From positions 32,001 to 96,000 of the forward strand of contig JBMNFY010000008.1 in assembly GCA_050949565.1 (NCBI GenBank): a stretch of DNA of 64,000 nt. The letters are read 5' to 3'. Position 1 is the first letter of the stretch. Each line of letters opens with the position of its first letter. Shown here piece after piece: positions 1,249 through 14,770 of this stretch. Origin of the DNA: Kiritimatiellia bacterium. GTDB lineage: Bacteria > Verrucomicrobiota > Kiritimatiellia > RFP12 > UBA1067. A model generated the notes under the pieces. That model saw only the letters and a program-made list of their open reading frames with translations, ran no database searches and was not told the DNA's origin. The position numbers and the translations under genes were made by a program.

Positions 1249-2583
1249 ATGAGCATAAACACGTACGCTCTTGTCATCGATGACGGCCCACTGGCGGGCA
1301 CACGATATACCGTCTCCCAGACCGGGCTTACGCTGGGCCGTTCCCGTCAGTGCGACATCGCGATCAAAGACATGCTGCTCTCCCGCAGCCACTGCCGTTT
1401 CGAACTGCGTGACGGTACGCTGTGGGTCGTCGACTTGGCCAGCGCAAACCAGACACTGGTCAACAAGGAGGCGATCGACGAAAGGATGCTCAATCCGGGT
1501 GACCTCATTGAGGTCGGCCAAACCGTACTGCGCGTTGACTACGCCGATGCCGCAGCCGGAGACGGACAATCCCCAGCGACCCCAAGCGCGGCCCCTGCCG
1601 ACGGTGTGGTGATCGACCTTGGTTTTGGAAAAGCCGATGCGTCGGGACACGCCGAAAAGAAATCGTTCCTGCGTCCCGTCATCTGGACGCTCGGCGCTGT
1701 GCTGGTGTTGATCATCGGCGCGACGTTCATTATGGACCCCGCGCGTCGCTCAAAGACCACCGACGCCGCCACGCCCGTCAGTCTGGAGCAGGACAAGACT
1801 TTGCTGGTGCAGTACGAAAAAGTCGAAGCCTCGACCGACAACCTCTTCCGCTACGAACTCGCGCTCTCGCCAGCCGGTATGCTGGCTGTCAAGATCGATG
1901 ACCTGTCCGGCAAGAACCGCCACGTCCGGAAGGAGAAGCAGGTTGAACCCGCACTGTTGAACGAACTGGTCCGCGACATCGAAAACAGCGGCTTCTTCTC
2001 ACTCGACAAGAGCTACTCCGGTTTCGCCCCCTCCCCCAACCAACTCAACGAGTGGACGCTGACCGTCGCCATCGGTCCGCGTGTCCATACCTGCCGTGTC
2101 ACCAACCGACTCGAACCCGAGGGGTTCCGGACATTGCGTGAACGGCTCGAAACGTTCAGTAAAAACGAACTGGGTATTTGGGCCATCCAGTTCTCCGCTG
2201 ACAAACTCACCGAACTGGCACGCGATGCTTTGTCGGTGGCCCGCAAAAAGTTTGACGAGCGCGATGTCAAATTCGGTAACCTGCACGAGTCCATCCGCAG
2301 TTATCAGGAAGCGGTCTTCTACCTCGACACCGTCAACCCCAAGCCGGACTTTTACACCACAATCATCGAAGGCTTCGAAACGGCCGAAGCCGAACTCGAC
2401 AAGCGCTACGAAGAGCAGCGCTTCCAGGCCAATCGCGCCATCAACCTGCAGGATTGGCCTACGGCGGCGCGTGAATTGAAAATCCTGCGCGAGATGATCC
2501 CAGACACCGCAGACAGCCGCAACAAAGAAGCGACCCAGAAGCTCATCGATGTCGAGGGACGCCTCAGAAAAATCCGCCGTTAA
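1249..2583 (+). CDS. FHA-domain membrane protein with helical C-terminal region
   Basis: N-terminal FHA (LGRSRQCDI, LSRSHC, DLASANQTLVN); single TM segment VIWTLGAVLVLIIGATFI. Confidence 0.85.
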   Translation: MSINTYALVIDDGPLAGTRYTVSQTGLTLGRSRQCDIAIKDMLLSRSHCRFELRDGTLWVVDLASANQTLVNKEAIDERMLNPGDLIEVGQTVLRVDYADAAAGDGQSPATPSAAPADGVVIDLGFGKADASGHAEKKSFLRPVIWTLGAVLVLIIGATFIMDPARRSKTTDAATPVSLEQDKTLLVQYEKVEASTDNLFRYELALSPAGMLAVKIDDLSGKNRHVRKEKQVEPALLNELVRDIENSGFFSLDKSYSGFAPSPNQLNEWTLTVAIGPRVHTCRVTNRLEPEGFRTLRERLETFSKNELGIWAIQFSADKLTELARDALSVARKKFDERDVKFGNLHESIRSYQEAVFYLDTVNPKPDFYTTIIEGFETAEAELDKRYEEQRFQANRAINLQDWPTAARELKILREMIPDTADSRNKEATQKLIDVEGRLRKIRR

Positions 2584-2609
2584 CCTGCCGCTCATTTGAG
2601 GAAACCGCC

Positions 2610-3938
2610 ATGACACGCAACTTCACCACTTGCCTCCTCGCCGCCCTGCTCGCGGCGTTCACCTTGTACGCCGCAAGGAAGGACGGCCCCACCACCCGCC
2701 TCGACGTGACCTCTCATCCCGCCGGGGCAACGGTCCTGATCGACCATCAGGAACGAGGCGTCACGCCGCTGACCCTTTTCGACCTCGCCCCCGGCCCCCA
2801 TCTGGTGCAGTTCACGAAAGACGGCTGCCGTGACACCTTTGAAAGCGTCTCGCTGGAACTCGGCGTGGTGCGCACGGTTGGTGCCCGTCTGGAACCGCTC
2901 ACCGGTATCCTGCTGGTCACTTCTGATCCGCCTGCATGCGATGTGGCGGTTAAGGGGGTCTCGCTGGGAAGCACCCCGCTGCTCGTCACCACGCTTGAGA
3001 GCGGCGTCCACCGCCTCACGGTCTCCTCGCCCGGCTACCAGACCAAGGAGATCGACGTGACGCTGGAAGGCCGTACCCCGATCAAGCAAGAGGTCACCCT
3101 GCTCTCCGACTCCGGTACTATGGCCTTGACCTCCGATCCGGAGGGGGCCGAGGTGCTGATTAACGGTATCGCACGTGGCCGCACGCCCTGCCGCATCGAT
3201 CGCATCCCCGGCGGAACGGTCACGGTCAAAATCCAAGCCGAGGGCTTCCAACCGCACACGCGGGAAATCTCACTGGCCGCCGGCGAAGTCCAAAACGTCG
3301 ATGTGCGTCTGACGCCGCTACCGGGGACACTGCGCGTGGTCTCAATCCCTGAGGGCGCGCGTGTCTACATTGACGATGAATACAAGGGCGATACGCCCTT
3401 CGATCTGAAGAACGCCGAGCCTAAAACCTACCGCGTCCGCGTCGAGCGCGCCGGACACGAACCGCTTGCGCGCGATGTAACGCTCGCAAAAGCCGCATCG
3501 ATCACCGAGGAGTTCCGCCTCTCCAAAATCACGGGACGCCTCGAGATCATCACCGCGCCGTCGCGTGCTACAGTCTTGATCAGCGGCAAGAAGGTCGGAA
3601 TCACCAGTACCCACGGCACCGACAGCACGGCGGTTTCCGATCCGTTCGCGGTCGAGGAGGTGCTGGAGGGCGAGCATGAAGTCGAAATCTTCCGCAAGGG
3701 GTATACCTCGCAGAAGCGGCGCATCACCGTGAAGCGCGGAGAAACGCAGACCCTTCAGTTCAAGCTGGAACGTCAGTTTATCCCAAACTACGAGGTCGTT
3801 ACCGGCCGTGCCCATTACAAAGGCGTGCTGGAGTTCATGAACGAGGAGGGCATCCACCTTGAAATCATGCCGGGCATCAGCCAGACGATCCCGATGAAGG
3901 ATGTCAAGAAGCACGGCCCGCTGACCGAAACCGAATGA
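2610..3938 (+). CDS. Secreted multi-PEGA-domain protein
   Basis: Signal peptide plus five repeats like LxVTSxPxGAxVxID..xGxTP. Confidence 0.88.
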   Translation: MTRNFTTCLLAALLAAFTLYAARKDGPTTRLDVTSHPAGATVLIDHQERGVTPLTLFDLAPGPHLVQFTKDGCRDTFESVSLELGVVRTVGARLEPLTGILLVTSDPPACDVAVKGVSLGSTPLLVTTLESGVHRLTVSSPGYQTKEIDVTLEGRTPIKQEVTLLSDSGTMALTSDPEGAEVLINGIARGRTPCRIDRIPGGTVTVKIQAEGFQPHTREISLAAGEVQNVDVRLTPLPGTLRVVSIPEGARVYIDDEYKGDTPFDLKNAEPKTYRVRVERAGHEPLARDVTLAKAASITEEFRLSKITGRLEIITAPSRATVLISGKKVGITSTHGTDSTAVSDPFAVEEVLEGEHEVEIFRKGYTSQKRRITVKRGETQTLQFKLERQFIPNYEVVTGRAHYKGVLEFMNEEGIHLEIMPGISQTIPMKDVKKHGPLTETE

Positions 3939-6448
3939 GTGCGTTTCCGGTCGACGCCATCCTACCCGACCTAGCCGCCTCGTTGGCGGCTAACCGCACA
4001 GCGGTGTTGCAGGCCCCGCCCGGCACGGGCAAAACCACGCGCGTAGCACCGTTTCTGCTGGACGCCGCCTGGCTGAAAGGACGCAAGATCCTGCTGCTCG
4101 AACCGCGGCGGCTCGCTGCGCGTACCGCCGCCGCTTTCATGGCACGCCAACGCAGCGAGCGGGTCGGCGAAACCATCGGTTACCACATCCGTCTCGAACG
4201 CCGTGCCGGGCCGCGTACGCGCATCGAACTCCTGACCGAAGGTCTGCTCACTCAACGCCTGCTGCACGATCCCGAACTCTCCGACACCGGGCTGGTGATC
4301 TTCGATGAGTTTCACGAACGCAGTCTGGCTGTCGATACTGCGCTGGCGCTCGCACTCGATACGCGCCGCGCACTGCGACCGGATCTGCGGCTCGTCGTCA
4401 TGTCTGCCACACTGCGCCCTGAAGCCATTGCCGCACACCTTGGCGACGCCGACATCCACACAGCCGACACGCGTCTCTATCCGGTCGAGACGCGCCTGCT
4501 CGACCGTCTCTCCACCGCATCCATCCCGCAACAAGCCGCCGGGGCCGTGTTGCGCGCGCTGCGCGAAGAAACGGGCAGCGTGTTGCTTTTCCTGCCGGGC
4601 GAAGGCGAAATCCGCCGCACGCTGGATCTGCTACGCAATGCAGACCTCCCGCCGGAGGTCTCGCTCTATCCCTTGTACGGTGCCCTGTCGCGCGAAGAGC
4701 AGGACGCCGCCGTGGCCCCGCCCGCCGTAGGCCGACGCAAGGTCGTGCTCGCCACCTCAATCGCGGAGACCTCGCTCACCATCGAAGGCATCCGTGTCGT
4801 CATCGACACCGGCTGGATGCGAGTGCCGCGCTTCTCGCCGCGCAACGGCATGTCACGTCTGGAAACCCTGCGCATCACCCGCGACCGGGCCGACCAGCGG
4901 CGCGGCCGCGCCGGACGTCTCGGCCCCGGCGTCTGCTACCGGCTGTGGGATGAAACCACCGATCTCCAACTTGCGCCTGAAGCACTGCCCGAGATTTTGG
5001 ACGCCGATCTCGCCGCGACGGTGCTGCAAGCTGCCGACTGGGGCACCAGTGCCCGCGACAGCCTGCCTTGGTTCACGCCGCCGCCCGACGCCGCATGGCG
5101 GCAAGCGGTCGGTCTGCTCCAAGCACTCGGTGCCCTCTCGCCCGCAGTCAGCCCTTCCGCCTTGGGCGCTACCGAATCTGCGGAAGCTCCCCCTCCAATG
5201 ATCACGGAGCGCGGCCGTGCCATGGCTGCACTGCCCGCCCATCCGCGCCTCGCCCACATGATTTTCGAAGCCGCGCGCGACGGTGCCGCGCAGCAAGCCT
5301 GCCTGTTGGCGGCAGTGCTCACCGAAGCCGCCTCCGAATCATCGGTACGCTACGAAACCGACGTGCGCCGTCTGCTGGACCGCGTACACGAAGGCGGCCG
5401 CGACGGCTTCAGCTACCGCGTCCATGAACTCGCCCGCCGCTGGGGACGCCGCCATCCGCCCACCGACCGTCAACGCCTCTCCGAAGGCCTGCTGCTCGCC
5501 TGGGCCTTCCCGGATCGATTGGCGCGGCGGCGCGACGCCACCGGCCGCTATCTGCTGCGCAACGGACGCGGCGCGGTCATTGACACCGCCGATCCGTTGG
5601 CGCGCGCGGAGTGGCTTGTCGCCGCCGAGTTGACCGACGACACCGCCGAAGCCAAGATCCGTCTGGCGGTGCCGCTCGACCAAAGCGAGGTTGAAGCCGC
5701 CTTTGCCGATCAAATGGAACGCCGCACATTGACCTTTTGGGATAAACGTAGCGAAGCAGTCATCTCGGTGAATCGCCTCTGCCTCGGCGCGATCACGGTG
5801 CATGAGGGCGGTCAGGCCGCGCCGGATGCCACCGACCTGCGCGCCGCCCTCTTTGAAGGCATCCGTCAGAAGGGAATCAGCCAACTGCCCTGGAGCAAAC
5901 GCGCACGCGCCCTGCAAGAGCGCGTACTCTTCCTGCGCCGCGCCCTACCGGAACAATCCTGGCCCGATTTTTCCGACGACGCGCTGTTGTCTGATCTCGA
6001 TACCTGGCTCGGCCCGTTTTGCGATGGCGTCACCCGCTGGAGCCATGTGACCGCGCTTGATCTCGCCGCGATTCTGCAACGTCGGCTGGAAGCGTGCGGC
6101 TGTTCGCGCCACGCCTTAGACACGCTCGCGCCTACGCACCTGCCGGTACCCAGCGGCTCGAACATCCAAGTTCGCTACGATCAAGATCCGCCCTACATGG
6201 AGGTGCGCATTCAGGAGGTGTTCGGTCTCACGTGCACACCGACTGTAGCTGGCGGACGCGTACCGGTCGTACTGCACCTGCTCTCACCCGCGCACCGCCC
6301 GGTGCAGGTGACCCGCGATCTGGAGAGCTTCTGGTCCACCGGTTACGCGCTGGTGCGCAAAGACCTGCGCGGACGCTACCCGAAACATTACTGGCCCGAA
6401 GACCCGCACCAAGCCGAACCGACACGCCGCGTACGCCCGCGTCCTTAA
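3935..6448 (+). CDS. hrpB: ATP-dependent RNA helicase HrpB
   Basis: APPGTGKTT, DEFHERS, SATL, ATSIAETSLTI, QRRGRAGR and C-terminal LRGRYPKHYWPEDP. Confidence 0.95.
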   Translation: MSAFPVDAILPDLAASLAANRTAVLQAPPGTGKTTRVAPFLLDAAWLKGRKILLLEPRRLAARTAAAFMARQRSERVGETIGYHIRLERRAGPRTRIELLTEGLLTQRLLHDPELSDTGLVIFDEFHERSLAVDTALALALDTRRALRPDLRLVVMSATLRPEAIAAHLGDADIHTADTRLYPVETRLLDRLSTASIPQQAAGAVLRALREETGSVLLFLPGEGEIRRTLDLLRNADLPPEVSLYPLYGALSREEQDAAVAPPAVGRRKVVLATSIAETSLTIEGIRVVIDTGWMRVPRFSPRNGMSRLETLRITRDRADQRRGRAGRLGPGVCYRLWDETTDLQLAPEALPEILDADLAATVLQAADWGTSARDSLPWFTPPPDAAWRQAVGLLQALGALSPAVSPSALGATESAEAPPPMITERGRAMAALPAHPRLAHMIFEAARDGAAQQACLLAAVLTEAASESSVRYETDVRRLLDRVHEGGRDGFSYRVHELARRWGRRHPPTDRQRLSEGLLLAWAFPDRLARRRDATGRYLLRNGRGAVIDTADPLARAEWLVAAELTDDTAEAKIRLAVPLDQSEVEAAFADQMERRTLTFWDKRSEAVISVNRLCLGAITVHEGGQAAPDATDLRAALFEGIRQKGISQLPWSKRARALQERVLFLRRALPEQSWPDFSDDALLSDLDTWLGPFCDGVTRWSHVTALDLAAILQRRLEACGCSRHALDTLAPTHLPVPSGSNIQVRYDQDPPYMEVRIQEVFGLTCTPTVAGGRVPVVLHLLSPAHRPVQVTRDLESFWSTGYALVRKDLRGRYPKHYWPEDPHQAEPTRRVRPRP

Positions 6449-7101: not shown

Positions 7102-7125
7102 AAGGAGTTTCCCCAAAAAATCTGG

Positions 7126-8385
7126 TCATTCCAGAAAGACCAGTCCGAGCGGGTTTGATTCGGGGTCTGGCGGCTTGTAGCCGTACCATTTCCCGTGGCG
7201 CGTGAAGAGCCTCCCGAGGCCGTCGGCGACGGCGTAGTGGAGGAACTCGGCCACGCCGTAGATGCGCTTGGCGGCGTGGGTGATGTTGGTCGTCAGGATC
7301 TCGCAGCGCAGCCGTCCGGCCAGCCAGACGCAGTTGAAGTAGATGACGGCCAGCAGCAGAGCGACCATGTTTTTCAGGCGCCGGTACGTCAGGACCCGGA
7401 CGTCCTCGAGGTTGTAGCTCTGCTTGACGAAGCGGATCGCGTCCTCGACGCGCCACCGCGTCAGATAGCCCTCGACGACCTGCCACAGGGACTTGCGCGA
7501 CGTCGTCCCGGCCAGCGTGGTCAGCAGGAGCATCGGCCGCTCGCCGAACCCCTTCACCACGACCATGCGCAGGGGCTTGTCGGGCCTCTGCGGCAGGGCG
7601 ACGGTCATGGCGCCGAACTCCAGCTTATAGCTTTTCACCCCGTCCCCCGTCTCCCTCGTGACGATCTCGATGTGCTTCATGGGGCAGGATGCCGCCAGTT
7701 CTTCGGCCAGCGCGGTCCGCCGGCCGTGGAGCAGGTTGCGGTTGCCCACGAGGCGCACGATGTAGTCCAGTTTGCGCCGGTCCAGGCCGTCGAACAGCCA
7801 GTCTCCGTCGCCTCCGCGGTCGATGACGTAGATGCCGCGCTTCTTCGCGCGGGAGCTGATCTGGTCGATGACGCCGAGCACCTCGTCGTTCTGGCTGATG
7901 AAGCCCTCCGCCTCGCTCGACCACAGCCGCATGTGCAACGGCGTGATCCGGCGGCCGCCGCTCTCGCAGGCGACCGCCAGGCAGGCGCTGTATCCGTTGC
8001 CGATCTCCCCCGTGCTCCCGTCCCGGACGCGGGCGAGATATTCCATCTTCTTCGCGTACAGCTTACGGATGTCGGTCGGGTCGATGACGATCAGCGTGTC
8101 CTGATGGACGTGACGCGAGCCCAGACGGGCGACAGCGTCGGAAATCCCCTGCTCGATGCCCTCGCTCCCGAGCATCCGGCTCAGCCTGTCCTCCAGTTTC
8201 TTCATCGATATCGGCTCGTCGAGCGCGCGGGCGATCCGGCTGAGCTTCACGTCCTGCGACGCCTGTATCCCGTAGACCATGTCGCCCACGAACTTGCCGA
8301 GCGGCTTGGAAAACCGGGGGGAAAGTTCCCCCAAAAAATTCTTGAGTTGCTCTCGCGCTTTGAACGCCGTTGCGCTATGATTCAC
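7126..8385 (-). CDS. IS4-family DDE transposase
   Basis: IDPTD, IDRGGD and YREK motif YLTRWRVEDAIRFVK; GTG start at 8385 after GAAAGGA RBS. Confidence 0.9.
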   Translation of the reverse strand: MNHSATAFKAREQLKNFLGELSPRFSKPLGKFVGDMVYGIQASQDVKLSRIARALDEPISMKKLEDRLSRMLGSEGIEQGISDAVARLGSRHVHQDTLIVIDPTDIRKLYAKKMEYLARVRDGSTGEIGNGYSACLAVACESGGRRITPLHMRLWSSEAEGFISQNDEVLGVIDQISSRAKKRGIYVIDRGGDGDWLFDGLDRRKLDYIVRLVGNRNLLHGRRTALAEELAASCPMKHIEIVTRETGDGVKSYKLEFGAMTVALPQRPDKPLRMVVVKGFGERPMLLLTTLAGTTSRKSLWQVVEGYLTRWRVEDAIRFVKQSYNLEDVRVLTYRRLKNMVALLLAVIYFNCVWLAGRLRCEILTTNITHAAKRIYGVAEFLHYAVADGLGRLFTRHGKWYGYKPPDPESNPLGLVFLE

Positions 8386-8501
8386 GTCGGTTTTCCTTTC
8401 CGGTTTTTGGTTTTTGGTTGAACCGCCATTTTGGCAGAACCGGCGGAGGAAAACCACTTTTTCACTTTCAGGCACGCCCGTCAGAGACGCATCCCCTTTG
8501 T

Positions 8502-8514
8502 TTTCAAGGACTTA
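8502..8514 (+). promoter_or_regulatory. Possible IHF-type site near the IS left end
   Basis: TTTCAAGGACTTA is a 1-mismatch match to WATCAANNNNTTR. Confidence 0.3.
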
Positions 8515-8551
8515 GATATAATTGCCCCCGATTTTTTGGGGAAAGTCCTTA

Positions 8552-8720
8552 CCTGTCAAGCGGCGGCGGCTGGCCGAGACGCTGTTCCTCGGCCACCTGC
8601 GCTACGCGACCTACGGGCGCGGCGACATCGGCTTCTGCCATCCGTTCGTGCACCGTGCCGCGCGGCTCAACCGCACGCTCTTCCTCGCGGGCAACTTCAA
8701 CCTCACGAACACGCATGACC
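8552..8720 (+). pseudogene. Internal fragment of class II glutamine amidotransferase (PurF-like)
   Basis: FLGHLRYATYG..CHPF..LAGNFNLTN; lacks a start and the C-terminal part. Confidence 0.6.
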
Positions 8721-8803
8721 TCGAGGACGAGCGCGACGGCCTTCAGCGTGACATCGCCGCTGCCGCCGGAAACACCAATGTCGAAGGAGTGCAGGCCCTT
8801 CGC

Positions 8804-9128
8804 GTGAGAAACGGGGTCGTAGTTTGACATTAGACAAACAGCAGCGTGAGAAACGGGGTCGTAGTTTGACATTAGACAAACAGCAGAAAGGCGAAGACAA
8901 GGAACGGTGAAATGATAGTGTGAGAAACGGGGTCGTAGTTTGACATTAGACAAACAGCGTGAGAAACGGGGTCGTAGTTTGACATTAGACAAACAGCAGA
9001 AAGGCGAAGACAAGGAACGGTGAAATGATAGCGGCTCGGCTGAAAACCAACGGGTCTTGTATCGGTCGGTTGCGCACGTATCGAGGGTGCTGGAAAAATG
9101 AAATGTCTCATGTCAAACTACGACCCCG
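8804..9128. repeat. Array of four direct 39-bp repeats plus one inverted copy (MITE-like ends)
   Basis: GTGAGAAACGGGGTCGTAGTTTGACATTAGACAAACAGC at 8804, 8846, 8920, 8959; identical 34-bp segment at 8885 and 8998; inverted core at 9104-9128. Confidence 0.9.
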
Positions 9129-10509: not shown

Positions 10510-13254
10510 CTATTTGAAAACCAAAATCATCCCGGTGGGCTTGGCAAGATAGAGGGTCTTTGTGTCACCGTCCGACATCCACTTGACGCGGGTATCGGTG
10601 ATGGGTGCGTTGGAGACTGCCCAGTTAGCGCTGGATGTGCCGAACGAAGATGGGACCGTGAGGACAGGGACTTTATCGGCTTTGAGCACAGCCTCGGTAA
10701 TCTCCGATGCATCGATGGTGATTGTGCCGGATGCGGAGAATGTTCCAGATACCACTTGAGGTGTTCCTGTAGCCTTCACGGTCGCGCCGGCCGCAAGCGT
10801 AATATTCGTCATCGCGTTGCCGGTCGTGAGAGAGCCGTTCACCAAGAGTGTTCCGTAAGCCGTCCCGCTGAAATTGTTTCCGTTGGCAAGTTTTCCGCCG
10901 TTATAGAAGTTGCTCACGCAGAGGGTCATGGTGCCGTCGATTCGCAACTCTCCCGACGCACCGATGTTCAACGTGCAGTTCGCGCCTGTCGTATTCGCAC
11001 GGGCACACTGAAACGTGCCGCCATTCACGTTAATCGTGCCATCTCCTGTTATGGTCGTGTTGACAAGCCAGAAGCCTGCGGTTCCGTTGAGTGTGAGGGT
11101 ATTCGAGCCGAGCGCAATGCCCGTCTGGTTCCAGCTAGGCGCCATGAGGCCGAAATTTCTCCCGGCAGTCACCGTCGCATCTCCTTCAAGACTTAGATTT
11201 ATGGTCTGATACGTGGTATTGCCGATTGCGGAACCGGTATTGACGAAGAACGCGCCATCTTCCAGCACCACCGATATGGTAAGGTTTTGAACGCCGTTCG
11301 CATCGAACGTCGCGCCGCTCGCCACACGGACGGTGTGGGTGGGATTGGAGGTTCCCGTCCCGCTCTTGCTCGCGACCTTGAGCGTTCCGTTGCTGACGAT
11401 TGTGGTGCCGGTCGAATCGTTGCTGAACGGCCAGCTTACCGTGCCGTCGCCCGTCTTGACGAGAGTGCCGTTGTTCACGATATTGCCGATGCCGCTGATG
11501 TCATCGGCCGTCACTGTCTTGCCAGAGGAGATGACCAAAGTCGAGCCGGTCGCGTCAACGAACTCGATGCACCCAACCGCCACATTCTCATTGACAGTCA
11601 GCGTGTAGTTGCCCGTCGCTGTAATGCGCACGATGTCATCTGAAGCAGGCATGACGCCGCCACTGAGGGTCGTCCAATCCTTGCTAGTGTCGAGCGTCCA
11701 CTTATGAACGGTCTGCGCTGTCACACGCACGTCACAGACACCGTAGCCAGCGGCAGTGTAGCTGTCCGCAATCGCGTTGCCGCTTCCCCACTCCTGCCCA
11801 GTATACAGATTCACGCCCGGATTGCCCCATTTCTGGTTCGGAGCAAAGATGGTCGAGGCATAAATCCCGTCGGCACCGTTCTCGAACGACACGACGGCGC
11901 ATTTGAGCCAGTCTCCGTCGCGCTCCTGATACTCGACGATAATGTTCGTCACGCTTCCGACGTCGTCCTCGTACACCTTCGTATTGTAAGCTGCTGTGGT
12001 CGGTTCAACCGAATCACAGTATTTCGTGCCCACATAGCCACCGGTCAGGCGCCCAGTGAACACGCCTCCCTTGATGTCATCGAGCGTGAGCGTTTTCGAC
12101 GGGTCGGAGAACACCTTGGTCTTGGCAGGATATTTCGCGATGCACTGCGGGATGGCGTATAGTTCCGAAACAGAATAGTTGCCTTCGCCGCCGGCAGAGC
12201 AGTTGCCGCCTGAGCCGTTCGACTTGGTTACAGTCCCGCTCGCGTCGATGGCAAACTTCTGCGCGTTGGCCGTGCCGTTGTAGGAGTAGCACGGCTGCGA
12301 GGCCCAGACGCCGCCCACGCCGTCCACAAGCTGTATGATCGCAGTCTTCTTCATCTCGGACGACTCGAACTGCATCACGATCTTTTCGAGTTTGTCGTTG
12401 GCTGCGTTCGTCCAGCACGTCTTGAAAGCCGCCCAATTATTCGTCACAGGCTTGTCGAGAGCATCGGCCATGCGGAAGCCTGCGACGAAGGCGCAGTCCT
12501 TGAGGTCTTCAAGTGTCACGCCAGGAAAAGCGAGGCTCGAATCCGGCACTGCTTTGACGCCATGGATTCTCAAGCCCCATGCCTTGTAGCCACCGCTCGT
12601 GCCGCTGCCGGTCGGAGCGGTCTGGGCCTTGGCGAACGATGCATTGCTGCCGTCCAGCCCGTACATGCGCCTGTTGTAGTATAACGCGTTGCCGCTGTGG
12701 TAGCACCAGCCAAACTTCTGCACATAGACGCCGCCATCGCCGTTGGTAAGGACGAAGACGACCGCCTTAGCCTGCCCCTCGTCGCTCGTGCCGAACTGGT
12801 ATGCAAGCACATCGACGCTGTTGTTCGTCTTGTGGCGTTGTGGATGGAGTCCCCACGCCGTCGCACGGGCTGTGATGGTATTGTCGCCATCGCCGCCGTC
12901 GAGTTCGGTGATGAGCGTATAACGGTTGATCTCGTCAAGCGTCTTACCGGGAAACGCGAGCTGCGGCTCGTAACCGATTTCTATGTCGGACGCGATGCCC
13001 TCTATCTTGATGGCGGTACAGTCCTGCTTTTCCTTTACCTGATAGTACGTCGTTGTCGACGCTCTTGCGGTGAGAGTCGCTGCAGTGGAAACGGCGGCGA
13101 CAAGCAAAATGCAACGAAATATTTTTGTCAGTGTTGTTTTGTAGAGTAGAGACCCACGCCTCGACGTTGCCGTCGATGCGGCTTCCCCCTCGTCAAACCG
13201 TACGTGCGGATTTCCCGCATACGGCTTTCCATTGAGTGCTTCTCTTTTTGTCAC
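10510..13254 (-). CDS. Large secreted surface protein with autotransporter-associated beta-strand repeat; N-terminal 38 codons are intron-derived
   Basis: Signal peptide KTTLTKIFRCILLVAAVSTAATLTARA; ~3 internal repeats (FPGxTLxD..IVxxxxGxxGxY); GTLVKTGDGT..TGTTIVSNGTL; C-terminal GMILVFK. Confidence 0.8.
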   Translation of the reverse strand: MTKREALNGKPYAGNPHVRFDEGEAASTATSRRGSLLYKTTLTKIFRCILLVAAVSTAATLTARASTTTYYQVKEKQDCTAIKIEGIASDIEIGYEPQLAFPGKTLDEINRYTLITELDGGDGDNTITARATAWGLHPQRHKTNNSVDVLAYQFGTSDEGQAKAVVFVLTNGDGGVYVQKFGWCYHSGNALYYNRRMYGLDGSNASFAKAQTAPTGSGTSGGYKAWGLRIHGVKAVPDSSLAFPGVTLEDLKDCAFVAGFRMADALDKPVTNNWAAFKTCWTNAANDKLEKIVMQFESSEMKKTAIIQLVDGVGGVWASQPCYSYNGTANAQKFAIDASGTVTKSNGSGGNCSAGGEGNYSVSELYAIPQCIAKYPAKTKVFSDPSKTLTLDDIKGGVFTGRLTGGYVGTKYCDSVEPTTAAYNTKVYEDDVGSVTNIIVEYQERDGDWLKCAVVSFENGADGIYASTIFAPNQKWGNPGVNLYTGQEWGSGNAIADSYTAAGYGVCDVRVTAQTVHKWTLDTSKDWTTLSGGVMPASDDIVRITATGNYTLTVNENVAVGCIEFVDATGSTLVISSGKTVTADDISGIGNIVNNGTLVKTGDGTVSWPFSNDSTGTTIVSNGTLKVASKSGTGTSNPTHTVRVASGATFDANGVQNLTISVVLEDGAFFVNTGSAIGNTTYQTINLSLEGDATVTAGRNFGLMAPSWNQTGIALGSNTLTLNGTAGFWLVNTTITGDGTINVNGGTFQCARANTTGANCTLNIGASGELRIDGTMTLCVSNFYNGGKLANGNNFSGTAYGTLLVNGSLTTGNAMTNITLAAGATVKATGTPQVVSGTFSASGTITIDASEITEAVLKADKVPVLTVPSSFGTSSANWAVSNAPITDTRVKWMSDGDTKTLYLAKPTGMILVFK
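13141..13228 (-). ncRNA. Group II intron domains V and VI with 3' splice site
   Basis: Minus strand AAAGCCGTATGCGGGAAATCCGCACGTACGGTTT (DV, AGC triad); DVI hairpin TCGACG-GCAA-CGTCGA; ends CTCTACTCTAC (AY) at 13141. Confidence 0.92.
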
Positions 13255-13315
13255 GGCTTTCGTCCTTTCTTCGCTTTAAATGGCTGTGAATTATATTTGT
13301 TTTTTTTTCTGTCAA
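13255..13315 (-). promoter_or_regulatory. Promoter-like boxes and RBS inside the intron tail
   Basis: TTGACA (13315-13310), 14-bp spacer with A9 run, TATAAT (13295-13290); AGAAAGGA 8 nt before GTG at 13254. Confidence 0.5.
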
Positions 13316-14012
13316 ATCCGCGTTCTCGCAGTTACGAGGCGATACAGCCCATAGTGCGCCATCTCGCCATAGTACGAGTCCGCGAACTTCAGTCGGCAGC
13401 GCCGCTGGCTCTTCCTGTTGAGGAATCGCGCCATGCGCTTCAGCACATGGTGGTTCACCTTGCGGAAGGCCCTTGACGGATATCCGACGGAGTAGAACGC
13501 GCCCCATCCCTTCAGCAGTCTGTTCACCCTCTCGACGACGGTTTCGACAGGCAACAACACATTGCGCGAATGCGTCAGTTCGTGGACTTCGCGGCACACC
13601 CTCTTGACCGACTTCGGGGACGGGCCGAAGTGCAGGTACCTCCCGCCCGTCCCGAAGAGCCTGTCCCTCGCCTTCCTGAACTCGTAGCCGAGGAACACGA
13701 GCGACGAGCGTTCCGCGTCGAGGTCGAGGACTTTCGTCTTCTCCCTGTTCACGGTCAGCCCCATCCGCTCTTCGAGTATGCCTTCCACCTTCCGCAGGAA
13801 CCCGTCCCTCCACCTCTTCGCGAGCAGGACGAAATCGTCCGCGTACCGGACTATCGTCATCGTCTGCCCCATCGCTTTCGCCGTGAGGCTGGCTATCGTC
13901 TCGAACCAGTGGAGGTAGATGTTCGACAGAAGCGGGGATATGACGCCGCCCTGCGGCGTCCCCCTCCCCTTGGGTTTCACCATTACGCCGTTGGGTTCTC
14001 TTGCGCACGCTT
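13312..14012 (-). pseudogene. Group II intron reverse transcriptase/maturase, C-terminal half only
   Basis: GTPQGGVISPLLSNIYL, RYADDFV, GLTVNREKT, FLGYEF, maturase X (LLKGWGAFY); 5' part missing at the junction with the IS fragment. Confidence 0.92.
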
Positions 14013-14770
14013 TCAGCTCCCGCGCGAAGAAGCGCGGCATCTACGTCATCGACCGCGGAGGCGACGGAGACTGGCTGTTCGACGGCCTGGACCGGCGCAA
14101 ACTGGACTACATCGTGCGCCTCGTGGGCAACCGCAACCTGCTCCACGGCCGGCGGACCGCGCTGGCCGAAGAACTGGCGGCATCCTGCCCCATGAAGCAC
14201 ATCGAGATCGTCACGAGGGAGACGGGGGACGGGGTGAAAAGCTATAAGCTGGAGTTCGGCGCCATGACCGTCGCCCTGCCGCAGAGGCCCGACAAGCCCC
14301 TGCGCATGGTCGTGGTGAAGGGGTTCGGCGAGCGGCCGATGCTCCTGCTGACCACGCTGGCCGGGACGACGTCGCGCAAGTCCCTGTGGCAGGTCGTCGA
14401 GGGCTATCTGACGCGGTGGCGCGTCGAGGACGCGATCCGCTTCGTCAAGCAGAGCTACAACCTCGAGGACATCCGGGTCCTGACGTACCGGCGCCTGAAA
14501 AACATGGTCGCTCTGCTGCTGGCCGTCATCTACTTCAACTGCGTCTGGCTGGCCGGACGGCTGCGCTGCGAGATCCTGACGACCAACATCACCCACGCCG
14601 CCAAGCGCATCTACGGCGTGGCCGAGTTCCTCCACTACGCCGTCGCCGACGGCCTCGGGAGGCTCTTCACGCGCCACGGGAAATGGTACGGCTACAAGCC
14701 GCCAGACCCCGAATCAAACCCGCTCGGACTGGTCTTTCTGGAATGACCAGATTTTTTGGGGAAACTCCTT
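14013..14770 (+). mobile_element. 5'-truncated second copy of the same IS4-family element
   Basis: Near-identical to 7102-7859 in inverted orientation (one V/I difference seen in the translation); ends in IR ..GGGGAAACTCCTT at 14770. Confidence 0.92.

Follow-up and report, generated by a model that had tools for sequence, protein, structure and literature searches.

How can a gene for a secreted protein be translated when the catalytic 3′ end of a group II intron stands where its start codon should be? The question is raised by a locus on the minus strand of a 64,000-nt stretch of DNA from a Kiritimatiellia bacterium (contig JBMNFY010000008.1, positions 32,001 to 96,000; the whole stretch is called the window here). 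The first-pass annotation had listed a reverse transcriptase (RT) stop, TTGACA and TATAAT boxes, a ribosome-binding site (RBS) and a GTG at this locus and had proposed that the intron inserts directly behind start codons and supplies a translation start of its own. Our analysis supports this interpretation, which is largely right. Window positions 13141–14012 (minus strand) are probably a dead, 5′-truncated remnant of an endonuclease-less group II intron, from a Kiritimatiellae lineage that would retrohome between the start codon and the second codon of a gene and provide its host gene with its own in-frame translation start. The argument uses the following features, where ORF is open reading frame, SD is Shine-Dalgarno and IS is insertion sequence:

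10510–13140, minus strand: body of an 876-residue secreted repeat protein (the fused ORF 10510–13254 has 914 amino acids)
13060–13140, minus strand: Met-less signal peptide KTTLTKIFRCILLVAAVSTAATLTARA, start of the 3′ exon (the aligned G035 homolog starts MKRMVNLLLCIVVLTTFVFAFTAGA)
13141–13229, minus strand: group II intron domains V and VI (Rfam RF00029, 51.7 bits, gathering score 40, model positions 1–77 of 77)
13141–13254, minus strand: leader ORF of 38 codons, in frame with the downstream gene, start GTG at 13254–13252
13263–13270, minus strand: SD-like AGAAAGGA, 8 nt upstream of the GTG at 13254–13252
13290–13315, minus strand: outward-facing promoter-like boxes (TTGACA 13315–13310, 14-nt spacer with an A9 run, TATAAT 13295–13290)
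13312–14012, minus strand: C-terminal half of the intron RT/maturase (RT blocks 5–7, X domain), 5′-truncated (Pfam RVT_1 111–205 of 205, and GIIM)
14013–14770, plus strand: 758-bp 3′ part of a 1449-bp IS with a DDE_Tnp_1 transposase (IS positions 692–1449 by blastn against the own genome; Pfam)

Group II domains V and VI (DV–DVI) were the only family found in an Rfam scan of the 64-kb window. Because the RF00029 match spans the whole model, the predicted 3′ splice site is the model end at 13141, which coincides with the site predicted by the first-pass annotation; the intron reads ...CUCUACUCUAC/A at this position (a slash within a sequence marks the intron–exon border) and its RNA would end in ...CUAC. 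Each of the signals listed earlier, from the RT stop to the GTG at 13254, was found on the minus strand, and the TGA stop of the RT (13314–13312) sits within the TTGACA −35 hexamer. The stop-free frame that had been described is present as well: it encodes the leader peptide MTKREALNGKPYAGNPHVRFDEGEAASTATSRRGSLLY, runs for 38 codons from the GTG through DV–DVI to 13141 and continues into KTTLTKIFRCILLVAAVSTAATLTARA... from the 3′ exon.

The exon begins AAA ACA ACA and offers no ATG or GTG in its start region; the only candidate is a TTG at exon codon 12, inside the signal peptide and with no visible upstream SD sequence. Homologs of the secreted protein occur in 17 of 61 related genomes (the own genome, G000, counted), and no Pfam or NCBIfam family matches it. 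Since the best homolog (G035; 46% identity over residues 9–479 of the 876-residue query) has its start, MKRMVNLLLCIVVLTTFVFAFTAGA, at the aligned position, what the window gene lacks is exactly its Met, lost at 13141.

The intron recognized in the first-pass annotation has a real group II 3′ end, but it is 5′-truncated and unable to splice, which was overlooked. Pfam matches of the RT-fragment ORF (13312–14040) are confined to the C-terminal end of RVT_1 (profile positions 111–205 of 205) and the maturase domain GIIM. The fragment is 63% identical to the full-length RT of locus L016, which scores 371 bits on TIGR04416 (cut-off 300), and it is fused directly to the truncated IS at 14012/14013. 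As homology to the intron RT ends at 14012 and domains I–III and the N-terminal half of the RT are absent, the window copy is a fragment that cannot splice. Splicing requires the 5′ end GUGYG and domains I–III, both absent here; in relatives the 5′ part of the ribozyme is present, starts GTGCGCC and matches RF02005. Neither a 5′ intron half nor a second RT of the family nor a second leader was found in the own genome, whose assembly is only 92% complete, so that absence of the 5′ half is not proven; an RF02005 search of this genome gave no match, and the same search also matched in none of its control genomes. A deletion ending inside the IS would have removed domains I–III, the N-terminal half of the RT and the RBS and ATG of the gene itself. 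With the native RBS and ATG removed, the 914-amino-acid protein, if made, must start at the GTG at 13254.

We determined the target preference of the lineage from 38 distinct 5′ junctions, four of which represent one identical nested insertion inside another intron. Among the 34 that remain, 31 follow a start codon (27 ATG, 3 TTG, 1 GTG; the other 3 differ), which bears out the proposed insertion directly behind start codons and answers in the affirmative whether the 5′ exons of other copies end in ATG. A 4-mer SD core lies upstream in 29 of the 34 junctions, mostly 6–9 nt before the start, and exon positions −4 to −10 are not conserved (at most 0.17 bit). No conserved hairpin was evident by eye in the 34 5′ exons. 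The full-length intron of L016 starts directly behind AAGGAGAAGATGAATATG. One ortholog pair provides an empty site, ATG/AAAATG: the intron-free genome G102 reads ...AAGAAGGGAAAAGTCCATG/AAAATGAAAATAACT (...GTCCATG/), and the G098 ortholog, 93% identical in protein, carries a 155-nt remnant ending exactly before AAAATGAAAATAACT. This G098 copy has lost the native −10 box, the RBS and the ATG, yet its frame stays open for 892 codons.

The ribozyme sequence suggests how such sites are found. The lineage appears to recognize its target through a 3-nt exon-binding site 1 (EBS1), CAU pairing with AUG, and an adjacent U that would pair with the first exon base A: a domain I triplet within ...UCAUA... 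fits AUG, and the preceding U fits the first A of the exon. EBS1 and the last exon bases covary among relatives, CAU going with AUG, CUG with CAG (L040), CGU with ACG (the nested intron) and CGGAU with AUCCG (the G265 lineage). In the ATG lineage, a loop that precedes EBS1 has the sequence CUCCU, and we tentatively regard this EBS2-like loop as a reader of the SD sequence. The EBS2-like loop fits exon positions −13 to −9 in L042 (UCUCG with CGAGA) and in the nested intron (UCAUU with AAUGA), and is off fixed register in L016, L037 and L040; as two relatives covary at these positions and three do not, an anti-SD read-out stays hypothetical.

The restart itself was assessed in 53 unique related copies with a 3′ end from other genomes, gathered by similarity to the leader. 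In all 53, the exon opens with A and is preceded by an in-frame start (ATG in 45, GTG in 8) with no intervening stop, and the random framing that would have spoken against the proposal was not seen. An AAAGGA-type motif occupies the matching position in nearly all copies. The leader measures 38 codons in 47 copies, 36 in three, 37 in two and 76 in one, so every change in length is a multiple of three. Downstream of the leader, 41 of 52 copies have 100 or more open codons in frame 0, compared with 3 in frame 1 and 10 in frame 2. At locus L035, 190 nt of the intron 3′ end are shared with the window at 99.5% identity, but the signal peptide that follows, also Met-less, is another one. The boxes, SD sequence, ATG and in-frame DV–DVI recur in L018 and L037, in both of which a signal peptide comes next.

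Because this set was selected by the leader, we performed a separate search with only the last 20 nt of the intron. It gave 297 matches in 72 of the 221 genomes of the family, with up to 31–32 copies per genome, and the reversed-pattern control gave none in the same 221 genomes. We sampled 29 loci, one per genome, of which 24 have enough upstream sequence to be judged: 22 of these precede a long frame-0 ORF and 2 have decayed exons. The start lies at the canonical 36–38 codons in 15 of the 24, and several others are long-insert variants. Three loci (L218, L221 and L226) are cut within the leader and have other in-frame starts.

At the protein level, the 37-residue leader was searched against 1.84 billion cluster representatives and matched 463 protein clusters at E ≤ 0.001, 62 of them at E ≤ 1e-10. 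Among the best 150 of the 463 clusters, the leader-end pattern places the end of the leader within the first 80 residues in 143; six of the other seven lack the end motif, and in one the leader ends beyond residue 80. Similar N-terminal peptides on Kiritimatiellae proteins had been mentioned in the first-pass annotation; they are confirmed by these 463 clusters and by the RT relatives (55–91% identity), which come from Kiritimatiellae metagenome-assembled genomes and a few short contigs binned elsewhere; the closest are in the former. At the DNA level, the 120-nt leader matches 99 of the 221 family genomes; in the window's genus, 6 other genomes were searched and gave no match. Three candidates were scored per genome. 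The identical layout in 53 of 53 copies, together with the leader peptide at the N-termini of these protein clusters, makes the pattern one beyond chance.

Behind ...SLLY, the leader continues into the second residues of highly diverse proteins, many of them signal peptides. By a crude hydrophobicity rule applied against a home-made ORF control, 93 of 131 proteins and 43 of 53 DNA copies have signal-peptide-like targets, compared with 41.5% of control ORFs, or 52.8% of those with a second codon starting with A. The secreted targets that had been proposed are thus found in many signal peptides, but targets are not confined to secreted proteins: other leader-bearing N-termini look, from their sequence, like those of an integrase, an isopropylmalate-dehydrogenase-type enzyme, a macro-domain protein and an RND pump.

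Most copies persist as 5′-truncated remnants that retain the start. Of the 53, 15 reach a contig end and 38 end inside a contig, 2 of these at full length and 36 5′-truncated. Truncated copies retain 114–1223 nt, 23 of them at most 200 nt, and the shortest retained length, 114 nt, is the exact length of the leader ORF. Both TTGACA and TATAAT are present in 27 of the 28 copies that retain at least 190 nt. Minis with an internal deletion and both ends also occur (e.g., L157/L161 and L164).

These observations fit a lineage that would bring TTGACA and TATAAT boxes, an SD sequence and an ATG or GTG in frame through DV–DVI, all placed between the RT stop and domain V. Having its own SD sequence and in-frame start, an unspliced or splicing-dead copy would still permit translation of the host ORF, with a leader of roughly 38 residues fused to its product. 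That the intron supplies its own translation start, as originally proposed, is consistent with the stop-free ATG or GTG frame in 53 of 53 copies and with truncated remnants that retain the predicted start. A leader ahead of a signal peptide would be lost with it at cleavage by signal peptidase, the product would be exported, and the host may draw a selective benefit.

Several points weigh against a working restart. The hexamers read as a promoter in the first-pass annotation are present, but their spacer is 14 nt in the window and 10–18 nt across copies, mostly under the optimum, and a consensus scan with a 16–18-nt spacer rule called no promoter at the window boxes; with such spacers the boxes may be weak or off. 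The 53-copy set was selected with the leader sequence as query. Its members are young, with about 2–3% variation, and with copies so recent and 995 of 1008 DV–DVI pairs intact, part of the apparent conservation is shared recent ancestry. Behind 11 of 52 copies the frame-0 ORF is short or broken. Signal-peptide enrichment is moderate and comes from a crude rule (93 of 131 against 53% in the control), and a 38-residue extension ahead of a signal peptide may impair export. The transcript start, the leader peptide and export of the product are what we infer from sequence.

RNA data add little to either side. In two gut metatranscriptome runs (X3 and X6; Logan contigs, DNA carry-over possible), unitigs begin exactly at 13141 and have loose ends into other exons. 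Contigs of a digester run (X1; Logan, DNA carry-over possible) cover 12300–12989 with 0–1 mismatches, and none bridges 12989–13185. No spliced joint was reported among the Logan contigs aligned to the window; such contigs are a weak test and show no transcript starts.

Could the leader simply be junk left by a decayed intron, with the gene silent or started elsewhere, the leader ORFs artefacts of gene callers and the recent copies conserved in appearance only? The low divergence of about 2–3%, the 14-nt spacer at which no promoter is called in the window and the 11 short or broken ORFs would all be expected of such a neutral relic. A relic has no need of 53 copies in frame without a stop in four or more length classes, each a whole number of codons apart, nor of truncations that end at or upstream of the start (minimum 114 nt, the ORF length), and the three shorter remnants have replacement in-frame starts. 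The G098 gene retains 892 open codons without its native RBS and ATG, the window exon offers only the TTG at codon 12 without a visible SD sequence, and the outgroup lineage in G265 lacks all leader features. We therefore regard a neutral relic as unlikely. Nor does the ORF seem to serve the intron alone, with the run-on into the exon incidental and translational coupling to the RT, or ribosome traffic through DV–DVI that times splicing, as its role. In L042, L036, L038 and L040, of a sister subclade, the leader start does overlap the RT stop (ATGA/GTGA) and promoter boxes are absent; the L040 exon opens with a stop codon, and the L038 frame closes after 10 codons. An ORF of this kind does not require an open frame into the exon, yet all 53 copies of the promoter-bearing clade are stop-free, and remnants that lack the RT or the ribozyme core still retain it; we consider this explanation very improbable.

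The first-pass annotation had also offered an alternative in which DV–DVI leaders act as splice acceptors for cis or trans exon shuffling. The remnant and its exon would then be trans-spliced or alternatively spliced to a 5′ exon with domains I–IV made elsewhere, and an ...ATG 5′ exon joined to AAAACAACACTG would restore the native Met and signal peptide. Pairing in DV–DVI is intact in truncated copies (995 of 1008 cells paired, with the pair retained in 38 of 51 changed cells), many remnants next to full-length copies, with several leaders on one contig, are found in some genomes, and the break points of truncated copies fall in domain IV. Natural split introns are likewise divided in domain IV. 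Because changes in DV–DVI are common to subfamilies and the copies are young, pairing cannot separate selection at the RNA level from recent origin. The alternative finds no 5′ intron half to work with in the own genome (92% complete), nor an RF02005 match (this search being silent in the control genomes too) or a second RT of the family; the 5′ exon would add only an ATG; and the SD sequence, start and frame of the leader would be needless, yet they are retained in 53 of 53 copies. No joined form appears among the contigs aligned to the window, a weak test. Of the explanations considered, we hold a splice acceptor to be the least probable. A remnant that carries its own translation start thus remains the reading that we prefer.

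A wider reading joins the target site to the fate of the remnants. In it, the lineage would read initiation regions much as a ribosome does, with the CAU of EBS1 and the adjacent U on AUG/A and the CUCCU loop on the SD sequence at loose spacing; remnants would be the working 5′ ends of hundreds of mostly secreted-protein genes, and the A or G run between the boxes would be an on/off switch. Because the lineage carries its own boxes, SD sequence, start and leader, 5′-truncated remnants would, in this wider reading, have become the 5′ ends of genes. We put it forward tentatively and think it, as a whole, rather doubtful. The spacer run on which the switch would depend (window 13296–13309, minus strand) differs between near-identical copies, being A9 in the window and up to A13 or G10 elsewhere, and the spacer ranges over 10–18 nt because this run varies in length. 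Variable runs were also seen in L114, L144, L145, L146, L156 and L165, where homopolymer assembly error is possible. The layout resembles, by analogy, that of phase-variable promoters ahead of surface-protein genes.

A separate lineage in genome G265, from another family of the same class, provides a comparison. Its 8 near-identical full copies (L250–L257, G265:C1, a one-contig genome) all sit after ...CCGTGCCATCGGTGTAATCCG and before TGGTCGAAAA... (target ...ATCCG/TGG), apparently within a dispersed repeat. None of the 8 has promoter boxes, an SD sequence or an in-frame leader, which makes this lineage a useful outgroup. A DV-linker motif, found in 13 of 401 genomes by a phylum-wide pattern search, is not specific to the start-codon lineage. 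With respect to the RT of the start-codon lineage (484 amino acids), the TIGR04416 match ends at residue 449 and no further family is matched; its best PDB relatives are IIC RTs (7uim, 5hhj, 6ar1), ahead of IIB (6me0) and IIA (5g2x). The L037 intron spans 2396–4425 (about 2.03 kb) with the RT match from 2751, leaving about 355 nt for domains I–III, and the D1–D4 region matches RF02005, not the model that matched a different intron, L025.

Nested and variant forms were observed in addition. In a twintron, domain I of the host intron is interrupted at position 142, after ...ACAAAGGAATGAGCCAAACG, by a related intron whose EBS1 triplet CGU matches ACG (L184 at 146; L186, L188 with its duplicate L187, and L199 at 1643); an SD-like AAAGGA lies upstream of this site though there is no translation start. 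Tandem leaders, the second without its own Met (...SLLY/TTGKALNGKP...), occur in the set P0001, P0005, P0016, P0023, P0078 and P0138, and their sequences suggest that the start codon of one copy's leader may itself have served as the homing site of a further intron. The leader in P0138 is joined to RT sequence, behind an internal GTG of an RT that resembles the window's. In another variant, the segment from the end of DV to the end of DVI is enlarged by an insert (...CTAEASLRRVHCRRQPEGRASVCA...) that amounts to about 21 residues in several members, is longer in others and is always in frame and stop-free (P0001, P0005, P0079, P0083, P0131, P0143 and P0145; L138, L220, L225 and L242).

Some observations concern the window protein and the rest of the genome. 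The protein ends ...KPTGMILVFK (10510–10540, minus strand), and a similar tail, G-[MFL]-x-[LIV]-[LIV]-[VF]-[KR], is found on many large leader-bearing proteins (P0075, P0111, P0115, P0116, P0129 and P0149); judged by its sequence, it may be a sorting or anchoring signal. The 1449-bp DDE_Tnp_1 IS has about 14 near-identical full copies and several fragments in the genome (contigs C5, C6, C7, C8, C11, C15 and C17), and one full copy lies at window 7102–8551, 5.5 kb from the truncated copy and in opposite orientation. Next to this full copy, ORF translations at 8549–9111 (minus strand) contain short direct repeats (peptide ...CLMSNYDPVSHA...), which points to a small tandem repeat in the DNA that borders the IS. 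The own genome also contains a second, unrelated group II intron, its only further RF00029 match (46.3 bits), at L002 ~880–1590 (G000:C7 ~107940–108650). It measures about 700 nt, has no ORF and begins GTGCGCCC directly behind a GC-rich hairpin, and looks like a IIC-type insertion behind a terminator.

How does the start-codon lineage relate to known systems? In Clostridium tetani, downstream DV–DVI copies of C.te.I1 serve alternative splicing onto surface-protein exons: the full-length upstream intron splices to alternative acceptors, and the 5′ exon supplies coding sequence. The Kiritimatiellae lineage likewise has solo DV–DVI units directly ahead of surface or secreted protein ORFs; unlike C.te.I1, it shows no 5′ half in the window's genome, its 5′ exon would give only an ATG, and each unit has its own SD sequence and start. 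Group IIC introns recognize their targets by a short pairing of EBS1 with intron-binding site 1 (IBS1) and a terminator hairpin. The Kiritimatiellae lineage resembles them in its endonuclease-less RT, nearest to the solved IIC RTs, and in a very short EBS1–IBS1 pairing of 3 nt plus one exon base, but its targets are SD–ATG sites, not hairpins, and its D1–D4 region matches RF02005.

Specialized IIB1 introns are known at initiation and termination codons (Michel, Costa, Doucet and Ferat 2007, Biochimie; Avi.groEL and EcKTE56.groEL; cited in PMC12584367). The available part of PMC12584367 describes, for this start/stop-codon clade, a 300–700-nt insertion in domain I and an unknown mechanism, and a C-terminal endonuclease domain in the RT of EcKTE56.groEL. 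As far as this text goes, both groups are monophyletic lineages tied to translation signals of protein-coding genes, initiation codons included, and the insertion site that defines the IIB1 clade, within or beside a codon for initiation or termination, is shared by the Kiritimatiellae lineage (31 of 34 junctions and the empty site). Compared with the clade as described there, the roughly 355 nt before the RT in L037 leave no room for a large domain I insertion, and the lineage RT ends soon after the maturase domain with no match to an endonuclease domain, unlike that of EcKTE56.groEL. Our sample of the Kiritimatiellae lineage comprises 34 5′ junctions and 53 3′ exons, all distinct, and secreted-protein genes account for most of them; the same available part of PMC12584367 mentions neither an in-frame leader nor an internal promoter for the IIB1 clade.

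Promoters carried by introns have a precedent in group IIC-attC introns, which have outward-oriented promoters (Pout; Leon and Roy 2010, PMC3001079, here after the accessible part of that article). Pout is an intron-borne promoter that restores expression downstream of the insertion, as the putative promoter of the Kiritimatiellae lineage would. According to the accessible part of PMC3001079, Pout lies in domains I/II, was sought on the bottom strand of attC-inserted introns and concerns transcription only; the Kiritimatiellae boxes instead share the strand of the intron and lie between its RT stop and domain V, followed by an SD sequence and a start fused to the host ORF. In the literature searched, we found no description of an in-frame leader through DV–DVI or of Kiritimatiellae introns, and Michel et al. 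2007 may hold relevant detail. A design that combines start-codon homing with an in-frame restart appears to be a variant of the specialized group II introns that has so far gone undescribed.

Because bacteria couple transcription to translation, introns are costly to them. The insertion point of this lineage is the one position at which a self-supplied in-frame restart can rescue a whole protein, and in secreted hosts cleavage of the signal peptide would strip off the added tag. The recognition mode, 4-nt pairing with a possible SD read-out, may be useful for targetron design. Gene callers already output hundreds of leader-bearing proteins, whose 38 extra residues probably mask signal peptides from predictors; this would skew secretome estimates for gut and digester Kiritimatiellae. 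If the reading is true, the catalytic core of a ribozyme, DV–DVI, is coding sequence in hundreds of proteins of these bacteria, and decayed introns have been reused as cassettes of promoter, RBS and start.

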